In this document: positions 2,087 through 64,000 of the stretch, one piece after another
How positions within the stretch are numbered: position 1 is the stretch's first letter
Layout of the letters: every line of letters begins with the position of its first letter
From: Escherichia coli
GTDB taxonomy: Bacteria; Pseudomonadota; Gammaproteobacteria; Enterobacterales; Enterobacteriaceae
DNA: 64,000 nucleotides
Assembly (NCBI RefSeq): GCF_024298765.1
Contig: NZ_CP101210.1
Reading direction: 5' to 3' (one strand)
Notes under the pieces: model-generated
What the model was told of the DNA's origin: nothing
Seen by the model: the letters and a program-made list of their open reading frames with translations, nothing else
Database searches by the model: none
Program-made: the position numbers and the translations under genes

Positions 2087-2092
2087 TGGCAG

Positions 2093-5659: not shown

Positions 5660-5669
5660 GGAGCAGGCT

Positions 5670-6893: not shown

Positions 6894-6897
6894 CAAA

Positions 6898-7302: not shown

Positions 7303-7323
7303 GCGAAAACGAGGAGAGAAACA

Positions 7324-9495
7324 ATGAGTCAAACCATAACCCAGGGCCGTTTACGCATTGACGCCAATTTTAAACGTTTTGTGGATGAAGAAGTTTTGCC
7401 GGGCGTGGAACTGGACGCTGCCGCGTTCTGGCGCAATGTTGATGAGATCGTTCACGATCTGGCGCCAGAGAATCGTCAGTTGCTGGCAGAGCGTGATCGC
7501 ATTCAGGCGGCGCTTGATGAGTGGCATCGCAGCAATCCGGGGCCGGTAAAAGATAAAGCGGCCTATAAATCTTTCCTGCGTGAACTGGGCTACCTGGTGC
7601 CACAGCCTGACCACGTTACGGTGGAAACCACGGGCATCGACAGCGAAATCACCAGTCAGGCGGGGCCACAGCTGGTGGTTCCGGCGATGAACGCCCGCTA
7701 CGCGCTGAACGCGGCGAACGCTCGCTGGGGCTCACTGTACGATGCGTTATACGGCAGTGACATCATCCCGCAGGAAGGGGCGATGGTCAGCGGCTACGAT
7801 CCGCAGCGTGGTGAGCAGGTTATCGCCTGGGTTCGGCGTTTCCTCGATGAATCACTACCGCTGGAAAACGGCAGCTATCAGGATGTGGTGGCGTTTAAGG
7901 TGGTCGATAAACAATTACGCATCCAGTTGAAAAATGGTAAAGAAACCACGTTACGTACTCCAGCACAGTTTGTCGGTTACCGTGGCGATACTGCTGCGCT
8001 GACCTGCATTTTGCTGAAAAATAACGGCCTGCATATTGAGCTACAAATCGATGCCAACGGGCGGATTGGCAAAGACGATTCGGCGCACATCAACGATGTT
8101 ATCGTCGAAGCGGCCATCAGTACCATTCTCGACTGCGAAGATTCGGTTGCGGCGGTTGATGCGGAAGATAAAATCCTGCTGTACCGCAACCTGCTGGGCC
8201 TGATGCAGGGGACTCTGCAAGAGAAAATGGAGAAGAACGGTCGGCAAATCGTGCGTAAACTGAATGACGATCGTCAGTACACTGCCGCCGATGGATCTGA
8301 AATTTCTCTGCACGGACGCTCGTTGCTGTTTATCCGCAACGTGGGTCATTTGATGACCATTCCTGTGATTTGGGACAGCGAAGGCAATGAAATCCCGGAA
8401 GGCATTCTTGATGGCGTCATGACTGGCGCGATTGCCCTCTATGATTTAAAAGTGCAGAAAAACTCGCGCACTGGCAGCGTCTATATTGTGAAACCGAAAA
8501 TGCACGGTCCGCAGGAAGTGGCGTTCGCCAACAAACTGTTTTCCCGCGTTGAGACAATGCTCGGTATGGCACCGAATACCCTGAAAATGGGCATTATGGA
8601 TGAAGAACGCCGGACCTCGCTGAACTTGCGTAGCTGTATCGCTCAGGCGCGCAACCGCGTGGCGTTCATCAATACCGGTTTCCTCGACCGTACCGGCGAT
8701 GAAATGCATTCGGTGATGGAAGCGGGCCCGATGCTGCGTAAAAACCAGATGAAATCGACGCCGTGGATCAAAGCCTACGAACGTAATAACGTGCTTTCCG
8801 GTCTGTTCTGTGGGCTACGTGGAAAAGCGCAAATCGGTAAAGGCATGTGGGCAATGCCGGACCTGATGGCAGACATGTACAGCCAGAAGGGCGACCAATT
8901 GCGTGCCGGGGCAAACACGGCCTGGGTTCCGTCGCCAACTGCCGCTACGCTCCATGCGCTACACTACCACCAAACCAACGTACAGAGCGTGCAAGCCAAC
9001 ATTGCCCAGACCGAGTTCAATGCTGAATTTGAACCGCTGCTGGACGATCTGCTGACTATTCCGGTTGCTGAAAACGCTAATTGGTCGGCGCAAGAGATCC
9101 AACAAGAGCTGGATAACAACGTGCAGGGGATTCTGGGGTACGTGGTGCGTTGGGTGGAGCAGGGGATTGGTTGTTCAAAAGTGCCGGATATTCACAACGT
9201 GGCGTTGATGGAAGACCGCGCAACGCTGCGTATTTCCAGCCAGCATATCGCCAACTGGTTACGTCACGGTATTCTGACCAAAGATCAGGTGCAGGCGTCG
9301 CTGGAGAATATGGCGAAAGTGGTTGATCAGCAAAACGCTGGCGATCCGGCTTATCGTCCAATGGTGGAGAATTTCGCTAACTCGTGTGCTTTTAAAGCTG
9401 CCTGCGATTTGATCTTCCTCGGAGTGAAACAGCCAAACGGCTATACCGAACCGTTATTACACGCATGGCGTTTACGCGAAAAAGAAAATCATTAA
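7324..9495 (+). CDS. glcB: Malate synthase G
   Basis: 723-aa [30 protein letters not shown]..., size and sequence typical of malate synthase G. Confidence 0.95.
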
Positions 9496-9850
9496 TAGCG
9501 TCAAAAAAAGCCCCGGCAAGATTTATTGTCGGGGCTATGATAGTAACTGCGGTAGTACATTTATCCCGGAAATAACCGGAGCGATTATCAGGGGTTAACA
9601 ATATTAAATACCCGTAGCGCATCACTAGCGGGATTAAAACAACAATATGGACATCTTAACGATACTCTGCGCCTGCGTGTGCGGAACAGAAACCCTTACC
9701 CGATATACTTGTTATGCCAGAGGTAGCAATTGCGTTAGCGGCGTACTGTTGCTGTAAAGTATAACGCCTATATTTTACAGTTCAGTCCTCTTTTGCTTAT
9801 TACAACCTTAAGTATATCAAGCATATAAAGATAATAAGAGACTGAACAAT

Positions 9851-11533
9851 ATGGTTACCTGGACCCAAATGTATATGCCGATGGGAGGACTGGGGCTATC
9901 CGCTCTGGTCGCCCTGATCCCAATAATATTCTTCTTCGTTGCACTCGCGGTATTACGTCTGAAAGGACATGTCGCTGGAGCAATAACCCTTATATTATCT
10001 ATTCTGATTGCGATATTCGCCTTTAAAATGCCGATTGATATGGCATTTGCTGCTGCGGGCTATGGCTTTATTTATGGTTTATGGCCTATTGCGTGGATTA
10101 TTGTCGCGGCGGTATTCCTGTATAAATTAACCGTTGCCAGCGGCCAGTTCGATATTATCCGCAGCTCGGTTATCTCCATCACCGACGATCAGCGTTTGCA
10201 GGTGTTACTGATTGGTTTCTCCTTTGGTGCGCTGCTGGAAGGGGCGGCTGGCTTTGGCGCGCCGGTGGCGATTACCGGTGCGCTGCTGGTGGGCCTGGGC
10301 TTCAAACCGTTATACGCGGCGGGGCTGTGTCTGATTGCCAATACTGCGCCGGTGGCGTTTGGTGCGTTGGGCGTGCCGATTCTGGTCGCCGGTCAGGTAA
10401 CGGGAATCGATCCGTTCCACATTGGCGCAATGGCGGGACGTCAGTTACCGTTCCTGTCGGTTCTTGTACCGTTCTGGCTGGTAGCAATGATGGACGGCTG
10501 GAAAGGGGTGAAAGAGACGTGGCCAGCGGCGCTGGTTGCTGGGGGAAGCTTCGCTGTCACGCAGTTCTTTACCTCTAACTATATTGGTCCGGAACTGCCG
10601 GATATTACTTCGGCGCTGGTGAGTATCGTCTCACTCGCTTTATTCCTTAAAGTCTGGCGGCCGAAAAATACCGAAACGGCAATCAGCATGGGACAATCCG
10701 CAGGAGCGATGGTGGTGAATAAACCATCTTCTGGCGGTCCCGTGCCTTCAGAATATAGTCTGGGGCAAATCATTCGTGCGTGGTCACCGTTTTTAATCTT
10801 AACGGTGCTGGTCACCATCTGGACCATGAAGCCGTTTAAAGCGTTATTTGCTCCGGGCGGCGCGTTTTATTCACTGGTGATTAATTTCCAGATCCCTCAT
10901 TTGCATCAACAAGTGTTGAAAGCGGCACCCATTGTCGCCCAACCAACGCCAATGGATGCGGTGTTTAAATTCGACCCTCTCTCGGCTGGCGGCACCGCTA
11001 TTTTTATTGCGGCGATTATCTCTATCTTCATCCTCGGCGTGGGCATCAAGAAAGGGATTGGCGTCTTTGCCGAAACGCTAATTAGTCTGAAGTGGCCGAT
11101 ATTGTCGATTGGCATGGTGCTGGCGTTCGCCTTCGTCACCAACTATTCCGGTATGTCCACCACGCTGGCGCTGGTACTGGCAGGTACAGGCGTGATGTTC
11201 CCGTTCTTTTCGCCATTCCTCGGCTGGCTGGGGGTATTCCTTACCGGCTCGGACACCTCCTCTAACGCCCTGTTTGGTTCACTGCAATCGACCACGGCGC
11301 AGCAAATCAACGTCTCTGACACACTGCTGGTGGCAGCAAATACCAGCGGCGGCGTAACTGGCAAGATGATCTCCCCGCAATCTATCGCCGTGGCCTGCGC
11401 CGCGACGGGCATGGTGGGCCGGGAATCTGAACTGTTCCGCTACACCGTGAAGCACAGTCTGATTTTTGCCAGCGTTATCGGCATTATCACGCTGTTGCAG
11501 GCGTATGTGTTTACTGGGATGTTAGTCTCGTAA
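9851..11533 (+). CDS. glcA: Glycolate/lactate permease (LctP family)
   Basis: 560-aa polytopic membrane protein [35 protein letters not shown]... Confidence 0.9.
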
Positions 11534-12017
11534 ATCAATAATGCCGGATGATCGTTAATATCATCCGGCTTCATTTACATTATTCTGTCTTATTAATTGA
11601 AAATTATTTCTCGCTTTATTATCCATGCGGCAATAATATTTTGTGTTTAGATAACCTGCTAAATAATTAAGATCGTGAGAACATCTATTTTTTATCACGC
11701 AAAACAAGTCTGTACTAATTATGTTCGCTTGATGAGCAAACACCGTTCTATCTGTTGCTTTTGCAATCTTAATCGTTAAAACTACCAACAAATTTATATA
11801 GTTACGTTGTGAATGGTTGTTAATTTTTTGTTTATTGAAATTTCGTAAAAATAACCATCCAGACATCGAATAGGGGTTATTCTTATAAATTTTACCTGTT
11901 TTTCTATCAATGATGCCGTTTTCTTAAGAATGGAGGAAGTTATTAAAGAAGATAAAGCATAAAACTATTTCTCCCAGTTACGAATTTTTTAACATTGTTT
12001 TGTCACTTGCGTTATTA

Positions 12018-15000
12018 ATGAATAAGAAATTTAAATATAAGAAATCGCTTTTAGCGGCTATTTTGAGCGCAACCCTGTTAGCCGGTTGTGATGGCGGTGG
12101 CTCCGGATCTTCCTCCGATACGCCGCCTGTAGATTCTGGAACAGGGTCTTTGCCGGAAGTGAAACCTGATCCAACACCAAACCCGGAGCCGACGCCTGAG
12201 CCAACGCCGGACCCAGAACCAACGCCGGAACCGACACCTGATCCAGAGCCAGAACCGGAGCCAGAACCTGTTCCTACGAAAACGGGTTATCTGACCCTGG
12301 GCGGAAGCCAGCGGGTAACTGGTGCTACCTGTAATGGTGAATCCAGCGATGGCTTTACATTTACACCTGGTGAGGACGTTACTTGCGTGGCGGGTAACAC
12401 GACAATTGCCACCTTCAACACTCAGTCAGAAGCTGCGCGTAGCCTGCGTGCGGTTGAAAAAGTGTCGTTTAGTCTTGAGGACGCGCAAGAACTGGCGGCT
12501 TCCGATGACAAGAAAAGCAATGCGCTCTCGCTAGTCACCTCCATGAACAGTTGCCCGGCGGATACAGAACAGGTGTGCCTGGAGTTCTCCTCAGTGATCG
12601 AGAGTAAACGCTTCGACTCGCTGTATAAGCAAATCGATCTGGCACCGGAAGAGTTCAAAAAGCTGGTCAATGAAGAGGTGGAAAACAATGCCGCGACCGA
12701 TAAAGCGCCATCCACTCATACTTCACCGGTCGTGCCCGTCACCACTCCGGGAACAAAACCGGATCTGAACGCTTCCTTCGTGTCGGCTAACGCGGAACAG
12801 TTTTATCAGTATCAACCTACGGAAATCATTCTCTCTGAAGGCCGACTGGTAGATAGCATGGGCAATGGTGTGGTTGGCGTAAATTACTACACCAGCTCAG
12901 GCCGTGGCGTAACTGGCGAAAACGGCAAATTCAACTTCAGCTGGGGCGAAACCATCTCCTTTGGTATCGACACCTTTGAACTGGGCTCAGTACGCGGCAA
13001 TAAGTCGACCATTGCGTTGACTGAGCTGGGCGACGAAGTTCGCGGCGCGAATATTGATCAGCTTATTCATCGCTATTCGACGACCGGGCAAAATAATACC
13101 CGTGTTGTGCCGGACGATGTACGCAAGGTCTTTGCCGAATATCCCAACGTGATCAACGAGATTATCAATCTCTCGTTATCCAACGGTGCGACGCTGGATG
13201 AAGGTGAGCAAGTTGTTAATCTGCCAAACGAATTTATTGAGCAGTTTAAGACGGGTCAAGCCAAAGAGATCGATACCGCGATTTGTGCGAAAACCGACGG
13301 TTGTAACGAGGCTCGCTGGTTCTCGCTGACGACGCGCAATGTTAATGACGGCCAGATTCAGGGCGTTATCAACAAGCTGTGGGGTGTGGATACAAGTTAC
13401 AAATCTGTCAGCAAGTTCCACGTCTTCCATGACTCTACCAACTTCTATGGCAGCACCGGTAACGCGCGCGGTCAGGCGGTGGTAAATATCTCCAACTCGG
13501 CATTACCGATTCTGATGGCGCGTAATGATAAAAACTACTGGCTGGCGTTTGGCGAAAAACGCGCCTGGGATAAAAATGAGCTGGCGTACATTACGGAAGC
13601 GCCTTCCATTGTGCAGCCAGAGAACGTTACGCGCGATACTGCGACTTTCAACCTGCCGTTTATTTCGCTGGGGCAAGTCGGTGAAGGCAAACTGATGGTT
13701 ATCGGTAACCCGCACTACAACAGCATCCTGCGTTGCCCGAACGGTTACAGTTGGGGCGGTGGTGTTAATAGTAAAGGTGAGTGTACGCTCAGCGGTGATT
13801 CTGATGACATGAAGCACTTTATGCAGAACGTCCTGCGCTACTTGTCAAATGACATCTGGCAGCCAAATACCAAGAGCATCATGACTGTCGGCACCAACCT
13901 GGAGAACGTTTATTTCAAAAAAGCGGGCCAGGTATTGGGAAATAGTGCACCATTTGCTTTCCATGAGGATTTCACTGGTATCACGGTTAAACAGTTGACC
14001 AGCTATGGCGATCTGAATCCGGAAGAGATTCCGTTGCTGATCCTCAACGGCTTTGAATATGTGACTCAGTGGTCTGGCGATCCCTATGCTGTGCCTCTGC
14101 GTGCAGATACCAGCAAACCGAAGCTGACTCAGCAGGATGTGACCGATCTGATCGCTTATCTGAACAAAGGTGGCTCGGTGCTGATCATGGAAAACGTGAT
14201 GAGCAATCTTAAGGAAGAGAGCGCGTCCAGTTTTGTGCGTCTGCTGGATGCCGCGGGTCTGTCAATGGCTCTGAACAAATCGGTGGTGAACAACGATCCG
14301 CAAGGGTATCCGGATCGCGTTCGTCAGCGTCGCGCGACTGGCATTTGGGTTTATGAACGTTATCCTGCTGCAGACGGCGCGCAACCGCCGTACACCATCG
14401 ACCCAAATACAGGGGAAGTGACCTGGAAATACCAGCAAGACAACAAGCCTGATGACAAGCCGAAACTGGAAGTTGCGAGCTGGCAGGAGGAAGTTGAGGG
14501 CAAACAGGTAACGCGTTATGCCTTTATTGATGAAGCGGAATACACAACAGAAGAATCTCTGGAAGCGGCAAAGGCAAAAATCTTTGAGAAGTTTCCTGGG
14601 TTACAGGAGTGTAAGGACTCGACTTACCATTACGAGATTAACTGTTTGGAGCGCCGCCCAGGCACGGATGTTCCGGTAACAGGTGGCATGTATGTTCCGC
14701 GCTATACGCAACTGAATCTTGACGCCGACACCGCGAAAGCGATGGTGCAGGCGGCGGATTTAGGCACCAACATTCAGCGCCTGTATCAGCATGAGCTTTA
14801 TTTCCGTACCAAAGGCAGTAAAGGTGAGCGTCTGAACAGTGTTGATCTGGAACGTCTGTACCAGAACATGTCGGTCTGGCTGTGGAACGATACGAAATAT
14901 CGTTACGAAGAGGGCAAGGAAGATGAGCTGGGCTTTAAAACGTTCACCGAGTTCCTGAACTGCTACGCCAATGATGCCTATGCAGGCGGCACCAAGTGCT

Positions 15001-42645: not shown

Positions 42646-44625
42646 ATGAACTTACAAGACAAAGAACAAAGCGCCAAACTCTCCAGTGCTATTTGGCGTA
42701 TGGCAGATGATTTATGGGGTGATTTCAAACACACCGATTTTGCGCGGATTATCCTGCCATTTTTGCTACTGCGTCGTATTGAATGCGTGTTAGAACCCAC
42801 CCGTGAGGAAGTTCGTAAGTTCTATCTGGCCGAAAAACAATCCGGCATAGACCTTGGTTTAGTGTTGCCAGAAATTGCGGGATTCGCCTTTTACAACACC
42901 AGTGAATATAGCCTAGAAACCTTAGGCGCGTCAGACACCGGCGACAACCTAGAACACTACATCAGCCAGTTCAGCAAAAACGTTCGTACCATCTTTGATG
43001 AGTTTAAATTTGGTCAAACCATAGAAGATCTGGAAAAAGCCAAGTTGCTGTATCGCATGGTAAACCATTTTGCCAACCTCGACTTGCATCCTGATGTAGT
43101 GTCTGACCGCGTATTATCAGATGCTTATGAAGAGCTGATTCTAAAGTTCGCCAGTTCGGTTAATGAAAAGGCCGGGGAATTTATGACCCCGCGTGATGCC
43201 GTGCGTCTTGCCACCAAACTGGTGCTGGCGGCGGATGAAGATATCTTTAGTGAAAAGGGTGTGATCCGCACCATCTATGACCCAACCTGTGGCACGGGCG
43301 GTTTCCTTTCCGATGCCATTAGCCAAATTGAAGAAATGGGCAGCAGCGCTAAAGTCGTGCCTTTTGGTCAAGAGCTCGACCCCGCGACCCATGCCATGGC
43401 GCTGACCAATATGATGATCCGCGGTTTTGATGCCAATAACATCAAGCAAGGCAACACCTTATCAGACGATCAGTTACGTGCCGACAAGTTTCACTACGGC
43501 CTTGCCAACCCGCCATTTGGCATTAAGTGGGAAAAAGCCAAGAAAGAAGTAGAACGTGAGCACAAACAGCTCAAATACGCCGGACGCTTTGGGCCAGGCC
43601 TGCCGAGTATTTCTGATGGTTCAATGCTGTTTTTACTGCACTTGGTATCAAAAATGGAAACGCCGGAAAATGGTGGTGGCCGAGTGGGTATAGTCCTTTC
43701 TGGCTCGCCACTGTTTAATGGCGATGCAGGCTCAGGCCCATCAGAAATCCGCCGTTGGCTGCTAGAACAAGACTTAGTCGAAGCGATTGTTGCCCTGCCA
43801 ACCGATATGTTCTTCAACACCGGCATTGGCACCTACATCTGGATTTTGACTAACCATAAAGAGCCAAGACGCAAGAATCAGGTGCAACTGATTAACTTGG
43901 CAGATATTTGGACTCCCATGCGTAAATCGCAAGGCGATAAGCGCAAGTACCTGAGTGATGAACAGATTGACGATATTGTCCGTGCGTACGATGGCTTTGA
44001 AGCCAGTGACAACTGTAAGATCTTCCAGACTACTGATTTTGCCTACCGTAAAGTCACCATTCAGCGTCCACTGCGTGCCAAACTAGATATTACCGCTGCG
44101 GGCATTGCTGCATTTGTGCAGCAAGATACGTTTAAAAAACTCAAACCAGAGCAACAAGCGGCATGGGTACAATACCTCACCGATAACCTTGGCCTTCAGC
44201 CTTATGAATGGGCACGTTTGGCGGTTAAGAAGAATAACAATAAGGGTGACTTTGGTAAGTGCTCAAAAGCACTGGCTACGGCCTTAACTGCGCACTTTGT
44301 AAAAATTGATCCGCAATTTGAGCCTGCACTGGATGAAAAAGGCCAAGTGATCGCCGACCCTAAACTCAAAGACACCGAAAGCATTCCTTTTGACCGCGAC
44401 GTTGAAGATTACTTCGCACAAGAGGTGCTGCCACATGTACCGGATGCCTTTATTGATCACTCAGTGCGTGATGAAAAAGACGGCGAAGTGGGCATTGTCG
44501 GTTATGAAATTAACTTTAACCGCTATTTCTACCAATACGTGCCACCACGCGAGTTGAGTGTGATTGATCGTGAGCTAAAAGCATGTGAAGCGCGCATTCA
44601 GGCTCTGCTGAATGAGGTGGCGTAA
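42646..44625 (+). CDS. hsdM: Type I restriction-modification system, DNA methyltransferase subunit
   Basis: AdoMet motif DPTCGTGGFL and catalytic NPPF (GLANPPFGIKWEK); 659 aa. Confidence 0.9.
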   Translation: MNLQDKEQSAKLSSAIWRMADDLWGDFKHTDFARIILPFLLLRRIECVLEPTREEVRKFYLAEKQSGIDLGLVLPEIAGFAFYNTSEYSLETLGASDTGDNLEHYISQFSKNVRTIFDEFKFGQTIEDLEKAKLLYRMVNHFANLDLHPDVVSDRVLSDAYEELILKFASSVNEKAGEFMTPRDAVRLATKLVLAADEDIFSEKGVIRTIYDPTCGTGGFLSDAISQIEEMGSSAKVVPFGQELDPATHAMALTNMMIRGFDANNIKQGNTLSDDQLRADKFHYGLANPPFGIKWEKAKKEVEREHKQLKYAGRFGPGLPSISDGSMLFLLHLVSKMETPENGGGRVGIVLSGSPLFNGDAGSGPSEIRRWLLEQDLVEAIVALPTDMFFNTGIGTYIWILTNHKEPRRKNQVQLINLADIWTPMRKSQGDKRKYLSDEQIDDIVRAYDGFEASDNCKIFQTTDFAYRKVTIQRPLRAKLDITAAGIAAFVQQDTFKKLKPEQQAAWVQYLTDNLGLQPYEWARLAVKKNNNKGDFGKCSKALATALTAHFVKIDPQFEPALDEKGQVIADPKLKDTESIPFDRDVEDYFAQEVLPHVPDAFIDHSVRDEKDGEVGIVGYEINFNRYFYQYVPPRELSVIDRELKACEARIQALLNEVA

Positions 44626-45911
44626 TGAATGCTGGCAACATAGTAGATGCTTTCGTATCTGACTCGAAATGGAACTCAGTACCAGCTAAACGTTTATTTA
44701 CGAGTAGCAAAGAAATCAATCAAGGAATGAAAGAATCTAATCGTCTTGCACTAACAATGAAAGGTGTCATAAACCGCTCGTTAGACGATTTACAAGGACT
44801 TCAATCTTCTGATTACTCTGTTTATCAGATTTTTGAAAAAGATGACTTAGTTTTTAAGCTCATAGATCTTGAAAATATAAAGACTAGCCGAGTGGGGATT
44901 GTGCATGAACGAGGAATAATGAGCCCTGCATACATCCGTGTTTCAGCGAGTTCAAATAGCATCTACCCAAGGTTCTATTACTGGTACTTTTTTGCTCTAT
45001 ACCTAACCAATATTTATAACAAACTGGGTGGAGGAGTTCGTCAGAACCTAACAGCTGGTGATCTTTTAGAAATACCTGTTCCACTGATTGATATTTCATT
45101 ACAGAAGCAGGTTAGCACATTCCTTGATCGCGAAACCCAGCGCATCGACAGTCTGATCGAGGAAAAGCAGACCTTTATTAAGCTGCTCAAAGAAAAACGC
45201 CAAGCACTGATCAGCCATGTGGTCACAAAGGGGCTCTATCCCAATGTGGAGATGCAGGACTCTGGCATCGAGTGGATTGGGCAAGTGCCGAAGCATTGGG
45301 AAGTCAAAAAGATAAAGCATATTTGCTCCAACTTTATGTATGGAACCTCTCAAGACTGTAACCAGTCTGATGTTGGCTATCCTGTTCTCAGGATACCAAA
45401 CATCAAGAGTACCAATGTTGATTTTGAAGATCTCAAATATGCAAATATCAGTGATGTTGATGCTTTAACTTATCTTTTATCAAGAGGCGACATTTTAGTC
45501 ATCAGAACTAACGGTAACCCTAATCTGGTCGGCCAAAGCGCGCTTTTTGATTCAAATGGGCAGTATTTATTTGCGTCGTACCTAATAAAGTTAACACCAA
45601 AGCAAGGAGTGGATACTAGCTTCTTAGTGGAAGCGATGAACTCACTATCTGTTCGTCAAGCATTAACATTTCAGTCAAGAACATCGGTAGGTAACTACAA
45701 CCTGAGCATTCCTTCACTAGCTAATACAAGTATTGCTATCCCACCAATTGATGAGCAAAAGACAATAACGAATTACTTGAGTGCAGCAACGATAAACATT
45801 GATTTACTGATTCAAGAGACTGATAAATCGATTGATCTTCTAAAAGAACACCGCACATCGCTGATCAACGCGGCTGTCACAGGAAAAATAGACGTCAGGG
45901 AGGCGGTGTAA
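44625..45911 (+). CDS. hsdS: Type I restriction-modification system, specificity subunit
   Basis: 428 aa with two target-recognition domains separated by conserved repeats (LIEEKQTFIKLLKEKRQALISHVVTKGL / LLIQETDKSIDLLKEHRTSLINAAVTGKIDV); start overlaps hsdM stop (TAATG). Confidence 0.85.
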   Translation: MNAGNIVDAFVSDSKWNSVPAKRLFTSSKEINQGMKESNRLALTMKGVINRSLDDLQGLQSSDYSVYQIFEKDDLVFKLIDLENIKTSRVGIVHERGIMSPAYIRVSASSNSIYPRFYYWYFFALYLTNIYNKLGGGVRQNLTAGDLLEIPVPLIDISLQKQVSTFLDRETQRIDSLIEEKQTFIKLLKEKRQALISHVVTKGLYPNVEMQDSGIEWIGQVPKHWEVKKIKHICSNFMYGTSQDCNQSDVGYPVLRIPNIKSTNVDFEDLKYANISDVDALTYLLSRGDILVIRTNGNPNLVGQSALFDSNGQYLFASYLIKLTPKQGVDTSFLVEAMNSLSVRQALTFQSRTSVGNYNLSIPSLANTSIAIPPIDEQKTITNYLSAATINIDLLIQETDKSIDLLKEHRTSLINAAVTGKIDVREAV

Positions 45912-48900
45912 TGGCTGCACATCATGAAGTGCATTTTGAACAATATATTACCGAGCAGTTGGTGAACAATGGCTGGAAAGAAGGCCATTCCTGCCACTAT
46001 GACCAGCAACGCGCCCTTTACCCGCAAGATGTCATGGATTGGGTAAAGGCCACCCAGCCAGATGCCTGGCACAAACTGAATAAACTGCATGGTGTGAATG
46101 CCGAGCAGGTGCTGTTGGAGCGTTTGGAAAAAGCCCTCTCTTCCCACAAAGCTGGCAGTAAAACAGGTGGCACCATTAATGTGCTGCGTAAAGGCTTTAC
46201 CATTGCAGGTTGCGGCACGATTGCCATGGGCCAACGCAAACCCGAAGATGCGCGCAATGAAGAGCGTATAGCCCGTTATGAGCACAACATTTTGCGCGTG
46301 GTGCGCCAACTGAAATATTGCCCGACTCGCGAGTGGGAAATTGACTTGGTGTTCTTTATCAACGGTCTACCCGTTGCCACCGCCGAGCTAAAAACCGATT
46401 TTACCCAGTCGCTAGAATCGGCGATTGCGCAGTACAAAGAGGATCGTCTGCCCGTTGACCCAAAAACCAAGCGTAAAGAGCCGCTGTTAACCTTTAAACG
46501 CGGTGCAGTGGTACATTTTGCCATGTCTGATACAGAAATCGCCATGGCGACCAAACTGGCGGGAGAAAATACCTATTTTCTGCCCTTCAATAAAGGCCAT
46601 GATGGTTCTACCTCTGATTTGCCCGTACACATCAACTTGCCGGGTGAAGATGGAGAGTATCCGGTCAGCTATTTTTGGCAAGAAATTGCCCAAAAAGATA
46701 ATTGGCTACGCATTTTCTACAGCTTTGTGTATGTCGAAACCAAAGAGGTTGCCGATAGCAATGGCAAGGTTGAGCGTAAGGAAACACAGATTTTTCCGCG
46801 TTATCATCAGTTAGCCGCAGTCAACAAGATGATTGATGATGCCCGCCAGAACGGCGCAGGCATGCAGTATCTTTGTGAGCACAGCGCCGGTTCGGGAAAA
46901 ACCTCTACCATAGCCTGGACGGCCCATGATTTGATTCGTTTACGCAGCACCGATGGTAAAGCGGTCTTTAAATCAGTGATCATTGTGACCGACCGCACCG
47001 TGCTGGATTCGCAGTTGCAAGATGCGGTGCAACAGCTGGATCATCAATATGGGGTGATTAAGGCGATTGATCGCGAAAAGAGCAGCGAGTCGAAATCAAA
47101 ACAGCTGACTGAAGCGCTATTGACTGGCACGCCGATCATTGTAGTGACGATTCAAACCTTCCCATATGCGTTAGAAGCGATTCTGACCAATCAATCTTTG
47201 GCACAAAGTAACTTTGCGGTGATCATCGATGAAGCACACACCTCGCAAACAGGCTCTACAGCCAAAGGGTTACGCGCAGCGCTTACTCTAAACCTTAGCC
47301 CTCAAGAGTTGGAGCAAATGAGCATTGAGGACATTCTTACTAAGGTGCAAGAAGCGCGCGCCATGCCCAAGAACGTTTCGCACTTTGCTTTTACGGCAAC
47401 ACCCAAGCACAGCACCAAGATGTTGTTTGGCCGCCCGAAAGACCCTAACCAACCAGTGTCAGATGACAATCTTCCTGAATCGTTCCACCTCTACACCCAA
47501 CGTCAGGCCATTGATGAGGGTTTTATTCTTGATGTGCTGGAGAATTACACCCACTACGATACAGCCTACAAAATTGGTGAGAACAATCTGGATGAGAAGC
47601 GCGTAGACAGCAAACAAGCTCGCCGCGCGTTGGCGCGCTGGATGTCACTGCACCCAACCACGGTCAGCCAAAAAGTCGAATTTATTATTAAGCACTTCAA
47701 GGCCAATATCGCTCACCTACTGGAAGGTGAAGCCAAAGCCATGGTGGTCACATCGGGCAGGCCACAGGCGGTGAAATACAAGCTTGCTTTTGATAAATAC
47801 ATTAAAAAGCATGGTATTGAAGGTATCCAAGCCTTGGTTGCCTTCTCGGGCAAAGTCCCCGGCAAAGATTTGGGTGATGAAGACAGCCAAGACCCGCTAG
47901 AAATTGATTTCGATAAAGAGTACACCGAGTACAACTTAAACCCAGACACGCACGGGGCTGACCTGCGCCATGAGTTTGAGAAAACCGAATATCGCGTCAT
48001 GTTAGTCGCCAACAAGTTCCAAACGGGCTTTAATCAACCAAAACTGGTTGCCATGTATTTGGATAAGAAAATATCCGATGTAGAAGCGGTGCAAACGCTG
48101 TCTCGCCTAAACCGCACCTATCCAGGCAAAGACACAACCTTCGTGATTGATTTTGTTAACGATCCACAAACCATTCTCAATGCGTTCAAAAAGTACGACA
48201 AAGGCGCGCAGCTTAATGAAGTGCAAGATGTGAACGTCATCTATGACATCAAAGATATTTTGGATGAACAGAACATATACAACCATCAAGATTTAGAGTT
48301 GTTTAAGCAAGCGCGTGGTAAATCGATTCTCGGCCAATCACCTGACAAAAAGCCACACGCGCACAAGAAACTGCTAGCTGCCACACAACGCCCTACCGAT
48401 GTGTTCAACGTTAAGCTCAAAGAGCTGGTTGATGCTGCAAACCATTGGGATCAGCAATACAACAAAGCGCACCTTGCGGGTGATGAAAAAGCGGCGAACT
48501 ACGCAGAATCTCAGCGCAGTGATTTCACCAAGCAGCGCGAAGCACTAATGCGTTTTAAGTCAGATTTAGCTCGATTTGTGAAGCACTATAGCTATATGGC
48601 GCAATTGATTGAGTTTGGTGATCCTGAACTGGAAAACTTTGCCGCGTTTGCTCATTTGCTATCACGTCGATTGAAAGGGGTAACACCAGAAAACATCGAT
48701 CTCAGTGCACTGGTACTAGAAAAATTCAAAATCAAATACGACAAAGAGCCGCTTCCAGAAGCGTTTAATCAGGTACTTGAACCTATCCGCCCCAACTATA
48801 ACGACCCTGCGGATCGTGAACAGGCATTTCTTGCCGATATCATTCGCCGCCTAAACGAACTGTTTGGCGATGTCGGCGACGAACCCGGTCGCCGAAACTT

Positions 48901-49147
48901 TGCCAACGGTACTATTACGCGTGTCACCCAAAATCCAATTGTGGTTGAGCAGATAGAAAAGCACGACAAGTCGATTGCCCTCAAAGGCGACTTGCCGCAA
49001 GCGGTGAAGCAAGCCGTTGTGCAGGCTCTGCTGAAAGAAGGTGATATAGCCCGAACGCTACTCAAAGACCCACAAGTTATGGCAAGTTATGTTGAGTTGA
49101 TTTTTGACATGATGAAGCAAGGTGCAGAACAGGCGGCGGTGAAATAA
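45911..49147 (+). CDS. hsdR: Type I restriction-modification system, restriction/helicase subunit
   Basis: 1078 aa; Walker A SAGSGKTST, DEAH box (IIDEAHTSQ); start overlaps hsdS stop (TAATG). Confidence 0.9.
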   Translation: MAAHHEVHFEQYITEQLVNNGWKEGHSCHYDQQRALYPQDVMDWVKATQPDAWHKLNKLHGVNAEQVLLERLEKALSSHKAGSKTGGTINVLRKGFTIAGCGTIAMGQRKPEDARNEERIARYEHNILRVVRQLKYCPTREWEIDLVFFINGLPVATAELKTDFTQSLESAIAQYKEDRLPVDPKTKRKEPLLTFKRGAVVHFAMSDTEIAMATKLAGENTYFLPFNKGHDGSTSDLPVHINLPGEDGEYPVSYFWQEIAQKDNWLRIFYSFVYVETKEVADSNGKVERKETQIFPRYHQLAAVNKMIDDARQNGAGMQYLCEHSAGSGKTSTIAWTAHDLIRLRSTDGKAVFKSVIIVTDRTVLDSQLQDAVQQLDHQYGVIKAIDREKSSESKSKQLTEALLTGTPIIVVTIQTFPYALEAILTNQSLAQSNFAVIIDEAHTSQTGSTAKGLRAALTLNLSPQELEQMSIEDILTKVQEARAMPKNVSHFAFTATPKHSTKMLFGRPKDPNQPVSDDNLPESFHLYTQRQAIDEGFILDVLENYTHYDTAYKIGENNLDEKRVDSKQARRALARWMSLHPTTVSQKVEFIIKHFKANIAHLLEGEAKAMVVTSGRPQAVKYKLAFDKYIKKHGIEGIQALVAFSGKVPGKDLGDEDSQDPLEIDFDKEYTEYNLNPDTHGADLRHEFEKTEYRVMLVANKFQTGFNQPKLVAMYLDKKISDVEAVQTLSRLNRTYPGKDTTFVIDFVNDPQTILNAFKKYDKGAQLNEVQDVNVIYDIKDILDEQNIYNHQDLELFKQARGKSILGQSPDKKPHAHKKLLAATQRPTDVFNVKLKELVDAANHWDQQYNKAHLAGDEKAANYAESQRSDFTKQREALMRFKSDLARFVKHYSYMAQLIEFGDPELENFAAFAHLLSRRLKGVTPENIDLSALVLEKFKIKYDKEPLPEAFNQVLEPIRPNYNDPADREQAFLADIIRRLNELFGDVGDEPGRRNFANGTITRVTQNPIVVEQIEKHDKSIALKGDLPQAVKQAVVQALLKEGDIARTLLKDPQVMASYVELIFDMMKQGAEQAAVK

Positions 49148-49701
49148 TGAATACTGCGTTTCGGGTTTTACTTACGTTCAATGCAACATCACTACTAGTG
49201 ATTATCTTTGCGGTACAAAAAGGGTACTCACTCGGATATTTCTTTGGTGGTTTCGCTTGCTTCGATTGGATAGCAGCACTTCCGAACGCAGTATCATATT
49301 TACTCTATTTTCTTATCCCTGTTTTATCGACTGGATTGAGTATTTGGCTGAGTAAGTATTTGGGTAAAGACGATTTTAAGGCGGGTGAAGTAGCGAGTAT
49401 TGAGCATGCCAATAACAGCTTCCTACCAAGTTATTTGGGTTACTTTTTCGTGGCGTTGAGCATTGGTAACTGGGAGACATTGTGGTTTGTTTATGGCGTT
49501 TTGTTTGTTTTTACTCTCTTATCGCAAGCACTCTACTTTAACCCATTGTTTTTACTGTTTGGTTATGAGTTTTATAACATTACAACCAAAAACGGAACGG
49601 CCATTTTCCTTATTAGCCGAGAGCGCTACAAGAAGCCAGATGACATCGAAATATCATTGGCTTATCGAATCAATAATTACACATTTATCGAGCGAGGATA
49701 A
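49147..49701 (+). CDS. Small polytopic membrane protein (about 4 predicted TM helices), candidate defense component (KwaA-like architecture)
   Basis: 184 aa with hydrophobic segments LLVIIFAV, WIAALPNAVSYLLYFLIPVLSTGLSIWL, YFFVALSIGNW, LWFVYGVLFVFTLLSQALYF; ATG overlaps hsdR stop (TAATG); AT-rich. Confidence 0.55.
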   Translation: MNTAFRVLLTFNATSLLVIIFAVQKGYSLGYFFGGFACFDWIAALPNAVSYLLYFLIPVLSTGLSIWLSKYLGKDDFKAGEVASIEHANNSFLPSYLGYFFVALSIGNWETLWFVYGVLFVFTLLSQALYFNPLFLLFGYEFYNITTKNGTAIFLISRERYKKPDDIEISLAYRINNYTFIERG

Positions 49702-50543
49702 TGATGGACCATGTACTGGCACATATAAAAACTAGAGCAAAAAAACGCATTTTCAAATTGGTTTCTGATCAATCTCTTTTTGATACCGTCACAATCGACT
49801 TAAATGCCTGTATTCCATACAATCCAGACCATAACCTTGACGAAGACTCATGGTTTAAAATTGAAGACTTTAGTCAAAAAGAGTTTTGTATTGAACTGCT
49901 AAAAAAAGACTATGATTCAAAAGACTACGATGACTTAACCAAAGATAACTTCGCCAAGATCGCCTACTTATTTGCAATTCAAGGTAATGATTTTTACTTT
50001 CAAAAAATCACTCCAAGCCTATTCGTAAAACGCAAAACGCTTGTTTTTGGTGAAGCCGCAGAAATTGAGAAGAGCCAAACACGTTTAGTAATAAACGCCT
50101 TACCTGATGCAGTGTACTTCAAAGTGGCCGATACCTTGATATTCAAAAATCTGGCAACGATCTCGAGCATTTTTAAAGGTATCGATGAGTTGTACAAGGA
50201 AGCAACAAAAGAAGAAGTTGAGCAGTTTTTAGATGCACAGTTTATAGAGTTGGGTAATGACTACAACGTAGATAGCGTCTCAAAACCTAATAGAAAACGT
50301 ATTGGCCTTGCTATGGCAACACTTGATGCGATGTCTGCTGACGATAAAGCTAACATGCTTGATTATATCGACGGTTACTGCGGTGAACAGAAGCTGAAAT
50401 TCGATAAAGAAAATCAGAAGTTTGAAATATCTAATGACGATGAGTTGAAGTTACTGCTTTATGGCATTGAACAACGCTTCTATACGACCCCGTTTGGCAA
50501 AGAAAAAAGGCTCGCTAACTCTGTAACCGCTATGGATAAATAA
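49701..50543 (+). CDS. Soluble acidic protein, partner of the membrane protein (KwaB-like position)
   Basis: 280-aa ORF, no TM segment, no recognised catalytic motif; ATG overlaps preceding stop (TAATG), GAGG SD. Confidence 0.55.
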   Translation: MMDHVLAHIKTRAKKRIFKLVSDQSLFDTVTIDLNACIPYNPDHNLDEDSWFKIEDFSQKEFCIELLKKDYDSKDYDDLTKDNFAKIAYLFAIQGNDFYFQKITPSLFVKRKTLVFGEAAEIEKSQTRLVINALPDAVYFKVADTLIFKNLATISSIFKGIDELYKEATKEEVEQFLDAQFIELGNDYNVDSVSKPNRKRIGLAMATLDAMSADDKANMLDYIDGYCGEQKLKFDKENQKFEISNDDELKLLLYGIEQRFYTTPFGKEKRLANSVTAMDK

Positions 50544-50578
50544 TAGCCCATTATCAGTAACATATGAAGGTTGATTCA

Positions 50579-51613
50579 ATGGCCGATAACATCCCACAAG
50601 CTCCTCAAGGTGAGTTTGTTCTTTTCACCAGTGCTGATGGTCAAACCCGCGTTGAGTGTCGTTTTGAGTCTGACACCTTGTGGCTTTCTCAGGCTGCAAT
50701 GGCAGAGCTTTATCAAGTTAGCTCTCAAGCAATCACCCAACACGTAAAAGCTGTCTATTCTGAAGAAGAGCTTGAGCAAATTTCAACTTGTAAGGATTAC
50801 TTACAAGTTCAACTGGAAGGTGGCAGAGAAGTAAAGCGAAGCATTCGTCACTACAGTCTTCCGGTTATTCTTGCAGTAGGATACCGAGTTCGCTCAACAC
50901 GTGGCACCCAGTTCCGCCAATGGGCAACCAGAATGTTGCAAGAATACCTAATCAAAGGATTCGTCATGGATGACGAGCGCCTGAAAAATCCGCCCATTGG
51001 CCATTCTGCTGTGCCAGATTACTTTGATGAAATGCTGGAACGCATTCGTGATATCCGAGCTAGTGAGCGTCGCGTTTATCTGCGAGTCAAAGAAATCTTT
51101 ACCATGGCTGCTGATTACGAGCCATCTAACCAAGAGACCAACCGCTTCTTCCAAACCATTCAGAATAAGCTGCATTATGCTTGTACGCATATGACGGCTG
51201 CTGAGCTTATCGCCAGCCGTGTGGATGCCAGTAAGCCGGATATGGGCTTAACCAGCTATAAAGGCGATGAAGTGCGCAAGACAGACGTTACTGTTGCCAA
51301 GAACTATTTGCGTGAAGACGAAATCAAAGAGCTTAATCGCATCGTCAATATGTGGCTCGACTTTGCTGAAGACCAAGCACTGCGTCGCAAGCAGGTATTT
51401 TTACAGGACTGGGCCGATAAGCTTGACCAGTTCTTGAGTTTTAACGATAGAGATGTATTAAACGGTGCAGGAAAAATCTCCAAGAAAGACGCTGATGACA
51501 AAGCGAAATTGGAGTTTGACCGCTTTGCCCAGCAGCGCCGTCGTTTAAAAGAAGCCGAAGGCGCACGGGCCAATATCGCAGCCCTCAAGGCCATACTAAA
51601 AAAAGATAAATAG
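50579..51613 (+). CDS. rhuM: RhuM-family virulence-associated protein
   Basis: ...RHYSLPVILAVGYRVRSTRGTQFRQWATRMLQEYLIKGFVMDDERL... matches the conserved RhuM core as I recall it. Confidence 0.7.
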   Translation: MADNIPQAPQGEFVLFTSADGQTRVECRFESDTLWLSQAAMAELYQVSSQAITQHVKAVYSEEELEQISTCKDYLQVQLEGGREVKRSIRHYSLPVILAVGYRVRSTRGTQFRQWATRMLQEYLIKGFVMDDERLKNPPIGHSAVPDYFDEMLERIRDIRASERRVYLRVKEIFTMAADYEPSNQETNRFFQTIQNKLHYACTHMTAAELIASRVDASKPDMGLTSYKGDEVRKTDVTVAKNYLREDEIKELNRIVNMWLDFAEDQALRRKQVFLQDWADKLDQFLSFNDRDVLNGAGKISKKDADDKAKLEFDRFAQQRRRLKEAEGARANIAALKAILKKDK

Positions 51614-54855: not shown

Positions 54856-54986
54856 TAAGAATCAACGGAAGCACAGAAGGTTCATACGTCCATCACCAAC
54901 TGATTGTTGTCATAACGGGTAACATAAAGGACTGAACGACTGTTTGAACCGCCCCGGGTTTCCTGGAGAGTGTTTTATCTGTGAAC

Positions 54987-57729
<2,743 letters not shown>

Positions 57730-58237
57730 CGTAAGTAAAATCAGCCACCCACAGCTGGTCAGGTCGTTCTGCCACGAACTGACGGTTTACGCGGTCGCCT
57801 GCGGCAACGGCTTTCCGGCTGATGGTCGTACGGACCTTTTTACCCCGGAGAACACCGGCAAGTCCCATAACCGCCATGAGACGTGCCACTGTACATCTGG
57901 CCACCCTGATTCCTTCCCGTAACAACTGACGCCAGACTTTACGCACACCGTACACCTGATGATTTTCATCGTATACGCGCTGTATCTCTCTCTTCAGCCA
58001 GTCGTCGTGCTGCGCACGGGCACTGCGTTTATCCGGATGATGTCGCTGTTGCTGACAATGGTAATACGTTGACGGGGCAATATGCAGTTCGCTGCATACC
58101 GGTCCGACCCCGTACTGCTCACGCAGCTTATCCAGCAGTGGCATCATTTTTCCAGAGGCGGTCGAACTCCGCCTTCGCAAAATAAGCGGAAGCCTGGCGA
58201 AGGATATCGTTACTGCGGCGCAGTTCACGATTTTCAC
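57730..58237 (-). CDS. IS3 transposase OrfB, 5' exon (upstream of intron)
   Basis: ...[73 protein letters not shown]...[10 protein letters not shown] then intron. Confidence 0.8.
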
Positions 58238-61270: not shown

Positions 61271-61680
61271 ATTTGTTTCCTGTGTTATTCTAATATAGCC
61301 CTTAAAGTAAATATTAGGGAGCCTCAACAATATCCAGAAATAATTATATTGTCTTCAAATACGCCAGTACTATTGATGGTTATCAATACCTAATCAGTAC
61401 AATCTTTTCCTCCATTTCTTCTTAACATATTTCACTCTATGAAAGATAAAACTGATACCCACCTACAGTTTTGGGTCACCAACAAAAAACAATGTTCGCC
61501 AGATATTCCACCACTGGCACAGTTCAACCCTGCTTCAAAAATTGACTTATTCATTGTGCTCATTTTCGTAGTCCGTTCAGGTTGAATAAAACTCCCTTAG
61601 TCAAATGAGGAAAGACTGAGAGGTTATTACTTTAGCTTACGTTATAGCTGTTTTCCTTTGCAGTATTTCCTTGCTTTTCT

Positions 61681-61705
61681 GTATACCTTTATACCTGTTA
61701 TACCA
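61681..61705 (-). promoter_or_regulatory. NanR operator (Nan box, three GGTATA repeats)
   Basis: Minus strand reads TGGTATAACAGGTATAAAGGTATAC = GGTATA-N3-GGTATA-N2-GGTATA, upstream of yjhB. Confidence 0.65.
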
Positions 61706-62300
61706 GATCAAAAAACAAGCAATCCACATAACAAAACGCGTTTTGTTACTGATGTCACAAATTGAGCATATTTTTGTAGCTGATAGTTTGTTACAAACAC
61801 CAGAACCAAGATGCCTATTTCGTTTCAGCATCAACTGTTAAATTATCTGGTTGCCAACGAGAATACTGAGCTTTTTTGTCCCCAAGACTGACCGTCAACG
61901 CCACAATCTTTGACTGTTTGACATTGTCATGCCCGCAGGCCAGCGGATCTAAAGACATTAGACTGCTTGCATCAGCCAGTTGCGTATCTGGCTATGTCCC
62001 TTAATTGGTAAGGGTTCGAGGAACTCAACATTAACGCATTTTTCAGCGCATCACCGACAGTGTATATGAACGATTGCACTCTGACGATGGTTGATTTATT
62101 TGGTTGCGTAGGGGCTAGCTAGTCTGGTACCGGAGGCTGGATCTGAAGTACTGACCCCAGGAATAACGCCGGGCTGACTCATATTCTGACCCATTGTCAG
62201 CCCGCGTGTTTACTGCTCTAGCTCATTTCCTGTTGTCAGGCGTTCAATTCCCAACTGCAGGTTATGGCCCGGTGCACAAACACCTGACGGCAGGTATCAC

Positions 62301-62630
62301 TTACCCGAAGAAGGTAAAGCCCTCAAGAGGCAGTAACTCAGCCAACCTCTCCTCCGGCCACTCCGGCAGACGCGTCAGGACGTCCGTCAGCCAAGCATGT
62401 GGCTCCAGACTGCGGTTCCCAGAAGGCTCATTATCTGTGCCGCGCGGTTCCCGGCCATCAGTGAACCAGCGAACAACCAGGCCTTTCGTCCCATAACGAC
62501 CAGACGGATAGCACGCTCGCAGATATTGTTGTGTGTGCCTTGAAATGCACGATCTTTCCGTCGGTGAAAGTCCGCCCCGGCTAACTCTCGCTCCGACTGG
62601 AAGGACAAGAAGCGGTCCAGGAGGTAACAA
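62301..62630 (-). pseudogene. IS66-family transposase C-terminal fragment (frameshifted)
   Basis: Two overlapping frames carry ...NNICERAIRLVVMGRKAWLFAGSLMAGNRAAQIMSLL... and ...HAWLTDVLTRLPEWPEERLAELLP..., matching the conserved C-terminus of IS66 TnpC as I recall it. Confidence 0.5.
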
Positions 62631-63098
62631 AAGGGCTGAATCTCTCCCTGAAACGACTTCTTCAGGAAGTCAACGGGTTATGCGGGCCGTAATGTGAGTG
62701 AACACTGAGCAGCCATCGAAATGCCGTCGAGGGTGCTGACACGCCACAATAACGGGGAAGGCCGACGATGACCGGGAAGAGAGTGAGAAAGGCATCGGTC
62801 ATACCCACCGGGGTTGTGGTGTCAGCATGCATAACAATTGATCGATCGTGCAACAAGAGAAGTCCATAACGATGTCTGTCCGGGTGACGGGCAACAACGC
62901 CTCGCGAGGGGGTGAATCGGTTGTTATGGATGGCAGATGGGGTGTAGTAGTGAAAATACTGAGTAATGTCAGAGGAGCGAAGGCCCCCTCTTGCAGTACC
63001 AGTGTAACATGCAGGAAGAGCCCGGGGATTGCCATCAGCCTCACAACCCCGCTCGAACCGGTTCAGAACCTACAGAAAACACTACAGGAGAAAGCAAA

Positions 63099-64000
63099 GT
63101 GAACCGCCCCGTGTTTCCTGTTTATCATTTTCTGGTCAGTGCCGCGATTCTGGTATTCGTGGTGATTTTCTGGCGGACACACCATCGCGACCACCGTAAC
63201 TGGCTGGCTCTACGGCTATTCGTATTATGCTCTGTAAACCGTTGGCCATTGCGGATGGTTAAAGGAACAGTTGTGGGGACAACTGACACATTACGTGAAA
63301 TGCAGCGTTATGAACAACTGAGTCAGCACGGGGCTGACAACTGGAAAATCCAGCCGGGAGCACCGTTATATGATACGATTGTTATTGTCACTGGTGAGAA
63401 TGTGCGCAGGGATTATATGTCAGTGTATGGCTATCTCGTACCAACCACACCGTGGCTGAATACGGCACCCGGTTTATTTATTGACGATTATACCTTGACA
63501 GCCTCCAGTACAGTGTCTTCCCTGAGCCGGACACTGATTTATGACTATGAGCAGAACCCTGATTCCGGCAACAATGTGGTGGCGCTGGCAGCAAAAGCAG
63601 GATACAGCACATGGTGGATATCCAATCAAGGAAAACTGGGGGAGCATGACACACGCATCTCTGTTATTGCTTCTGATGCGGAGCATGCCACTTTCCTCAA
63701 GAAAGGCAGCTTCGCTTCCCGTAAAACAGATGACAAACTGTTGTTACAGGAAACAGAACGTGCGCTGGCGGATACATCCTCTCCGAAGATAATTTTCCTG
63801 CACATGATGGGTTCTCATCCAAATCCGTGTGACAGCCTTAACTCCTGGCCGAATAATTACCTGGAGCAGTATCCCCGAAAAATTGCCTGTTACCTCGCCA
63901 GCATCAGTAAACTGGATAACTTTCTTGGCCAGCTTGATGGTATCCTTCGCCGGTACTCACATCATTTCGCCATGCTTTACTTTTCTGGCCTTGGGCTGTC
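63099..64000 (+). CDS. Sulfatase/phosphoethanolamine-transferase-family protein (YjgX-like), partial; continues past window end
   Basis: Frame from GTG 63099 open to the window end (MNRPVFPVYHFLVSAAILVFVVIFW...DTIVIVTGENVRRDYMSVYGY...KIIFLHMMGSHPNPCDSLNSWP...); only one N-terminal TM, so probably N-terminally truncated relative to EptA-type enzymes. Absent from ORF track because no stop lies in the window. Confidence 0.5.
   Translation, partial: MNRPVFPVYHFLVSAAILVFVVIFWRTHHRDHRNWLALRLFVLCSVNRWPLRMVKGTVVGTTDTLREMQRYEQLSQHGADNWKIQPGAPLYDTIVIVTGENVRRDYMSVYGYLVPTTPWLNTAPGLFIDDYTLTASSTVSSLSRTLIYDYEQNPDSGNNVVALAAKAGYSTWWISNQGKLGEHDTRISVIASDAEHATFLKKGSFASRKTDDKLLLQETERALADTSSPKIIFLHMMGSHPNPCDSLNSWPNNYLEQYPRKIACYLASISKLDNFLGQLDGILRRYSHHFAMLYFSGLGL

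Follow-up and report, generated by a model that had tools for sequence, protein, structure and literature searches.

The window, a 64,000-nt stretch of the Escherichia coli contig NZ_CP101210.1, closes on the remains of an IS66-family element, a piece of a group II intron and a truncated transferase gene. Positions 61400-64000 gave 100% identity with many E. coli chromosomes in a sequence search, and one of the 100%-identical records, that of E. coli strain 165 (NZ_CP020509), served as the reference for reading past the window end. PGAP annotation of NZ_CP020509 runs from nanY through nanX, a small hypothetical ORF and a transposase-domain CDS to a phosphoethanolamine (PEtN) transferase CDS. 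The K-12 annotation of the KpLE2/leuX island lists nanX/nanY, IS4, yjgZ (b4277) and yjgX (b4575, a pseudogene). Because the gene order nanY-nanX-yjgZ-yjgX equals that of K-12 KpLE2, the end of the window is, on this collinearity, identified as the yjgZ/yjgX locus of E. coli. The K-12 yjgZ/yjgX DNA is ~99.3% identical to the window and has the same gene order and the same intron/yjgX junction, but K-12 differs from the window in having IS4 between yjgZ and nanX.

PGAP labels the IS66 piece a 'transposase domain-containing protein' that is frameshifted and missing its N-terminus, labels yjgX a phosphoethanolamine transferase pseudogene with a missing N-terminus and an internal stop, and leaves the intron stretch without annotation. 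That yjgX is a pseudogene is already known, and to this extent our core finding is not new. The literature likewise records it as a pseudogene, and the yjgX site serves chromosomal integration in strain engineering. The features discussed below are as follows.

62009..62530, minus strand: right-end remnant of an IS66-family element, 522 bp (similarity to an intact element, Pfam, PGAP)
62009: terminal inverted repeat GTAAGGGTTCGAGGAACTC, the far end of the IS66 remnant (comparison with the intact element L005:3241-6013)
62301-62530, minus strand: 3' part of the tnpC transposase gene, last ~77 codons, within the IS66 remnant and beside its non-coding end
62301..62630, minus strand: yjgZ ORF, 109 aa (ORF list; K-12 annotation 'uncharacterized protein YjgZ', b4277)
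62531..63110, plus strand: group II intron fragment, 5' ~580 nt, ending at ~63099-63110 (Rfam, homology to a complete intron)
63099..64000, plus strand: in-window part of the yjgX pseudogene (translation, PF00884, paralog homology, PGAP and K-12 annotation)
63399..63401, plus strand: Asn codon AAT in place of the Ser of the GES motif (Ser in 13/13 intact homologs)
63987..63992, plus strand: Gly-Leu codons GGC CTT in place of the Asp-His of the SDHG motif (GAC CAT in the paralog)

The IS66 remnant and the group II intron fragment

For the insertion sequence, we took as intact comparison the element L005:3241-6013 on the E. coli plasmid pZ1323CEC0016-3, the bounds of which were set by its inverted repeats and the 8-bp target duplication GCTGATGA. 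At window positions 62126-62532 the DNA shows 85% identity to the 3' end of this element, and at positions 62021-62154 it shows 77% identity to the element. Pfam matches on the minus strand, in ORFs 62301-62630 and 62387-62608, are to the IS66 C-terminal element PF13817 (E 3.5e-10) and to DDE_Tnp_IS66, PF03050 (E 5e-7), the latter at profile positions 255-282 of 284. Relative to intact IS66, a 10-bp deletion near 62422 shifts the tnpC frame, and the ~77 last codons are spread over two frames. Remnant and intact element thus have in common the 85%-identical 3' 400 bp, the GTAA... terminal repeat and the C-terminal transposase motifs. In contrast to the intact element, the remnant consists of the last 522 bp alone, with a shifted frame; tnpA, tnpB and the IS66 left end are absent next to it, and its one terminal repeat, at 62009, faces away from yjgX. 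The segment 62009-62530 is a fragment and not a member IS66 element. A search elsewhere in the window found no sequence resembling it, and the other IS66 pieces and a second group II intron within the window were rejected as kin of these remnants for want of similarity. Strain 165 has other IS66 parts in a region whose counterpart would be at ~48-49 kb of the window, but collinearity between the window and strain 165 does not hold there.

A first-pass annotation of this DNA had placed an IS66 transposase fragment near the transferase gene, and Pfam together with the 85% DNA identity bears this out at 62301-62530 on the minus strand. It had also set the gene just beyond IS66; the gene is indeed nearby, but the ~580 bp between the two belong to a group II intron rather than to IS66. 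The intron starts with GUGUG at 62531, a position fixed by three-way alignment, in agreement with the GUGYG expected of such a 5' end, and takes in the ribozyme portion that precedes the ORF of its encoded protein. On the plus strand, 62558-62697 matches the Rfam model RF02003 (group-II-D1D4-4) at 67.2 bits, above its gathering score of 49 (E 6e-14). The fragment is homologous throughout its 580 nt to introns on an Enterobacter plasmid (L004, 90% identity) and an Azotobacter salinestris plasmid (L003, 76% identity), both of which run directly from the matching stretch into a reverse transcriptase gene. The reverse transcriptase ORFs of these relatives carry RVT_1 and GIIM domains, and the Azotobacter intron (L003, ~4059-6056) is complete, leading from RF02003 through reverse transcriptase and maturase to domains V-VI (RF00029). 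Unlike its complete relatives, the window copy has lost the reverse transcriptase/maturase ORF and domains V-VI. Some 7 codons of the intron-encoded protein (IEP) ORF (..LQEKAK) are left before the yjgX junction; RF00029 has no match in 61300-64000 at E<=1, and no intron-encoded reverse transcriptase or maturase was found in that same part of the window. Minus-strand ORFs at 62662-62856 and 62799-63044, such as 'IVMHADTTTPVGM', were considered as degraded IS66 transposase and rejected, as they have no Pfam match and the stretch is plus-strand intron.

The intron lies antisense within the IS66 tnpC gene. In 3/3 loci the opposite strand of the 5' exon encodes NN(I/R)AE(R/N)A(I/L)R...GRK, a conserved IS66 transposase motif, and the insertion point of the Azotobacter and Enterobacter introns is identical to that in the window, again in antisense orientation within an IS66 transposase gene. 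Because this 5' exon motif is the same in all three independent loci, the intron is predicted to home at a fixed site on the antisense strand of tnpC, before the NNxAE(R/N)A codons. IS679 is a member of the IS66 family. Another E. coli group II intron, E.c.I3, is reported to home into IS679 (PMC3522654), and the genes flanking E.c.I3 in strain 536 are annotated as IS66 family. E.c.I3 and the window intron are thus alike in sitting in an IS66-family transposase gene, but their identity was ruled out: at the nucleotide level the window intron does not resemble the copy in strain 536, where E.c.I3 is sense-oriented. The same survey of enterobacterial introns lists E.c.I4-tr1 as its only K-12 entry (PMC3522654), and for this reason the present fragment seems to have been missed there.

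The mixed origin of this stretch also accounts for yjgZ, which extends across the intron/IS66 boundary at 62530/62531. Its codons 1-33 run antisense through the group II intron, the central part reads IS66 tnpC out of frame, and the true transposase frame is used only in the last ~35 codons. The PF13817 match in yjgZ is accordingly limited to residues 75-101. Judged by this composition, yjgZ is a junk ORF, a chimera of intron and IS66 sequence.

Truncation and later lesions of yjgX

The yjgX ORF opens with a GTG at 63099, takes its first 4 codons from the intron and runs off the window end, and homology to PEtN transferases starts at 63112, corresponding to codon 105 of an intact paralog. Read onward in NZ_CP020509, the ORF is cut short by a TGA at codon 372 (window-equivalent 64212-64214, 212 bp past the window), and the ancestral yjgX frame ends at window-equivalent 64298. 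The paralog, WP_072644945.1 (500 aa), is encoded ~2 kb past yjgX in strain 165 and is 90% identical to it in amino acids and 92% in nucleotides over the 396 retained codons. This protein and WP_001347976.1, the intact island PEtN transferases of strain 165 (~500 aa), adjoin tia-like outer-membrane-protein genes and have the same sulfatase domain as yjgX (PF00884 Sulfatase, E 6.3e-31, ORF residues 93-352). In contrast to yjgX, both possess residues 1-104 with three additional hydrophobic segments, the Ept membrane domain PF08019 and the SDHG motif, and neither has an internal stop. A hydropathy scan found one strong hydrophobic segment in yjgX (ORF residues 5-23) versus 4-5 in the intact paralog, of which the three most N-terminal are absent from yjgX, and PF08019 gave no match in yjgX as opposed to one in the paralog.

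All 13 intact subfamily members that we aligned (34-89% identity) carry ~100 further N-terminal residues and align with one another up to the junction. By these alignments yjgX is N-terminally truncated, being without its first 104 codons. The missing codons were not found in other upstream frames, and no paralog-upstream (tia-like) sequence was found left of the IS66 end, at 61331-62010. Among 5.8 billion proteins there was no intact protein more than 90% identical to yjgX; a 98%-identical cluster of that set (P0002, 501 members) is the 371-aa truncated yjgX ORF. Relatives of yjgX in other genomes are repeatedly fused to IS66 or other fragments (clusters P0050 and P0031). The first-pass annotation had described a sulfatase/PEtN-transferase domain with one N-terminal transmembrane segment and had proposed N-terminal truncation. 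PF00884, the lack of PF08019 and the single strong segment agree with the description, and the full-length alignment, which takes in the gene beyond 64000 and the intact homologs, confirms the truncation at paralog codon 105 and shows no intact gene with a different start.

The nearest characterised family is EptC/CptA (PDB 5zzu, E 8e-18), EptA and MCR-1 being more distantly related. EptC/CptA and the intact paralog have the same alkaline-phosphatase/sulfatase fold, and the GES motif, the Thr region, HxxGSH and SDHG are common to both. The best NCBIfam matches of yjgX are CptA and EptA models, all far under their cut-offs. Because the CptA model scores 109 bits where its cut-off is 404, the YjgX subfamily is best placed as a branch of putative PEtN transferases apart from EptC/CptA; its members are ~500 aa long versus 547-577 aa for EptA, EptB and EptC. 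Set against the features that define PEtN transferases, yjgX has the PF00884 domain and is without the membrane domain, a complete metal/nucleophile site and an uninterrupted frame.

The catalytic domain has itself been damaged. The Asp and His of SDHG, invariant in 13/13 intact homologs, are replaced by Gly and Leu. Together with other active-site residues, this pair supplies zinc ligands in the published EptA and MCR-1 structures. In our alignment it corresponds to the SDHGE of the solved EptC (5zzu) and Neisseria EptA (4kav). The resulting SGLG is common to the window, the K-12 allele and the 371-aa cluster P0002. By contrast, the Asn that replaces the GES Ser is specific to the window allele, the Ser being kept in the K-12 and P0002 alleles. 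Across the columns invariant in the 13 intact homologs, the deviations confined to yjgX are S101N, R246S, D297G, H298L, E372stop and N378K; at codon 372 a TGA stands where the homologs have Glu, and the last 28 residues are lost. The active-site Glu, the putative Thr nucleophile and HMMGSH are retained.

Some of these lesions occur in all alleles seen (Asp-His to Gly-Leu, Arg246Ser and the codon-372 stop, all three also in K-12), whereas others are lineage-specific: Ser101Asn and Pro113Leu in the window allele, and a frameshift from an extra 1-bp deletion together with Trp350stop in K-12. The window and K-12 alleles differ by 7 non-synonymous changes (one of them nonsense), 1 synonymous change and one 1-bp deletion, a pattern that fits neutral drift. 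In comparison with the paralog the dN/dS of yjgX is 0.21, and the gene was therefore under selection before it broke. Overall, no enzymatic activity would be expected of yjgX.

The window allele keeps an uninterrupted 371-codon ORF, and an AGGAG lies 8 nt 5' of the GTG at 63099, start and AGGAG both being derived from the intron, where they formed the start region of the IEP. Because of this open frame and the AGGAG before its start, translation would be possible if the region were transcribed. A promoter scan of 61900-63100 returned no sigma-70-like promoter, which we regard as a weak negative. In the literature, a K-12 microarray meta-analysis places yjgX among genes up-regulated under several stresses, and in a cationic-peptide assay its Keio deletion proved a false positive, complementation being without effect. 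A C. elegans dauer screen lists the yjgX deletion as a weak, low-ranking match.

Origin of the junction and alternative readings

The yjgX junction (63100-63111, where microhomology leaves no more than ~4 nt ambiguous) joins the interior of the intron to the interior of the gene. Among 5426 complete E. coli genomes, 1534, K-12 included, contain a 151-bp sequence spanning this junction, and 1543 contain the intron fragment; elsewhere, matches to the 151 bp are confined to its paralog side. None of the 5426 genomes contains a longer or full copy of the intron, which amounts to a stump of 570 bp at most. The recurrence of the same junction in 1534 genomes, with an intron that is never longer, indicates one old event that has been inherited with the island module. 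The yjgX module stands beside differing island contexts in different strains, as reported previously (PMC6174562) and as seen in our own strain comparison.

We consider it very probable that the region is a non-functional relic, made up of the island pseudogene yjgX and the debris of the elements that truncated it. Anatomy, junction positions, lesions and distribution across the population can be read directly from the genomes, and from them we infer the following order of events. An IS66-family element would have come to lie either within the 5' portion of a YjgX-subfamily gene on the island or upstream of that gene, whose product would have had ~500 aa, with a membrane domain of 4-5 helices and a periplasmic sulfatase-fold domain. 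Retrohoming would then have brought the group II intron into the IS66 transposase gene, on its antisense strand and at the point that codes for NNxAERxxR. A single deletion, reaching from ~7 codons into the reverse transcriptase ORF of the intron to codon 104/105 of yjgX, may next have removed the 3' three-quarters of the intron, ~2.2 kb of IS66 (tnpA, tnpB and most of tnpC) and, on the yjgX side, the promoter and the first 104 codons. Neutral drift of the remnant would have added the shared lesions and afterwards the lineage-specific ones. Because we found no pre-deletion genome, neither the exact end-points within 63100-63111 nor a deletion in one step can be proven.

The first-pass annotation had suspected that IS activity truncated the gene, and mobile elements were indeed involved. 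The form this would take for IS66 itself, an insertion into the gene or a deletion adjacent to an IS end, is nevertheless very unlikely. An IS66-family remnant does lie 580 bp from the gene, and fusions of related genes to IS66 and other fragments (P0050, P0031) would fit such a history, but no IS66 end is present at the junction, the sole terminal repeat (62009) is on the far side, and at 62530 the intron interrupts what is left of the transposase gene. Since it is the intron interior that adjoins the gene, we attribute the truncation to a deletion between intron and gene rather than to an IS end. The arrangement at the junction bears equally on the idea that yjgX is whole and belongs to a subfamily of naturally short, single-TM proteins whose start is unlike that of EptA, EptB and EptC. 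YjgX-type proteins are, at ~500 aa, shorter than those three, but the sequence upstream of 63112 is intron and not family coding sequence, and every one of the 13 intact members has the ~100 additional N-terminal residues with three more hydrophobic segments; we give this idea almost no credence.

It had further been proposed that the gene, if still expressed, could modify envelope structures. A single-pass, periplasm-facing protein with a sulfatase fold, modifying the envelope or co-opted for another role, would be compatible with the open frame of 371 codons behind a plausible Shine-Dalgarno sequence, with the retained active-site Glu and Thr, and with the transcript signals of the K-12 meta-analysis. 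Against it stand the replacement of Asp-His metal ligands found in every intact homolog, the loss of the membrane domain and of the last 28 residues, the nonsense and frameshift lesions across alleles with their 7:1 ratio of non-synonymous to synonymous changes, the negative promoter scan and the failure of Keio deletion and complementation to affect killing by cationic peptides. With envelope modification contradicted by the SDHG-to-SGLG change, the codon-372 stop and the strain-variable lesions, we judge continued expression of a functional product to be highly improbable. A co-opted, non-catalytic periplasmic protein made from the former IEP ribosome-binding site is much less likely than even the intron-lineage reading offered below. 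Candidates for envelope modification are instead the intact, 90%-identical paralogs elsewhere in E. coli islands.

As a relic, the locus carries little biological weight, being a recognised pseudogene amid ordinary genomic wreckage. The value of its dissection lies in annotation, where it shows how yjgX was broken and explains the chimeric YjgZ. We offer more tentatively, and with the odds rather against it, the reading that the 580-nt fossil represents an uncatalogued E. coli intron lineage which homed antisense into the NNxAERxxR stretch of IS66, left one fixed remnant with YjgZ as an artefact ORF, and is otherwise extinct. Such an intron would have disabled its host element, since an antisense intron could not be spliced from the transposase mRNA. 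The small additions made here to the description of the locus are the antisense homing site in IS66 and an unannotated intron remnant in ~28% of complete E. coli genomes.

Intact and broken relatives of yjgX

Outside the window, the E. coli chromosome of strain 165 (NZ_CP020509) carries two intact modules in which a tia-like outer-membrane-protein gene is followed by a phosphoethanolamine (PEtN) transferase gene, at the following positions in two of its stretches, L001 and L006:

L001:9624-12047, tia-like gene and PEtN transferase, intact
L006:19979-22366, tia-like gene and PEtN transferase, intact

The two transferases, of 499/500 aa, share about 90% identity with yjgX. For the putative envelope modification they would be more promising candidates than this truncated pseudogene. 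Such modules are recurring island cargo. Chimeric proteins from other genomes retain only parts of the family: P0050 joins its N-terminal 160 aa to the middle part of an IS66 transposase, and P0031 joins a restriction-type helicase to its C-terminal 190 aa. Overall, island rearrangements seem to break genes of the yjgX family repeatedly.

A second group II intron and the interval beside yjgZ

An apparently full-length group II intron, recognized by its intron-encoded protein (IEP) ORF and an Rfam RF00029 match, interrupts an IS3-family element in the window:

55460-57730 (-), group II intron
55550-57073 (-), IEP of 507 aa with RVT_1 and GIIM domains
55460-55546 (-), domain V-VI, RF00029 match
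58073-58188 (-), ALIL frameshifting pseudoknot, RF01497, 115.7 bits, inside the IS3-family element

The halves of the element (54944-55468; 57730 onward) match an unsplit copy in strain 165. With a length of ~2.26 kb and an IS3 target, the intron resembles E.c.I4. In sequence, it is unrelated to the intron fossil at 62531-63110. The ALIL pseudoknot is expected, because the element uses a programmed -1 frameshift.

Near yjgZ, K-12 carries an IS4 insertion at about window 61802-61813, whereas the window has no IS4 there. The K-12 'yjgZ-insG' intergenic interval, from which an Hfq-bound sRNA of ~300 nt has been reported (PMC4152368), corresponds to window ~61813-62300, a stretch that takes in the IS66 remnant's non-coding end. 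An ORF in this stretch is called by PGAP:

61815-61958, hypothetical ORF of 47 aa

Restriction-modification genes and overall layout

A type I restriction-modification operon comprises three hsd genes, with further ORFs behind them:

42646-51613 (+), HsdM (659 aa), HsdS (428 aa) and HsdR (1078 aa)

Within these coordinates, on the same strand, the hsd genes are followed by two ORFs of 184 and 280 aa, neither of which gave a match in a Pfam search, and then by a RhuM-family protein of 349 aa.

ARAGORN detected no tRNA genes in the whole window (1-64000). Window 1-12420 is collinear with a strain-165 stretch annotated yghO/glcC to glcA. In its middle part, the window departs from strain 165. Beginning at about 28.6 kb, its matches in strain 165 are genes of mobile-island type, among them toxin-antitoxin pairs and one for an antirestriction protein; this part of the window also holds IS fragments.
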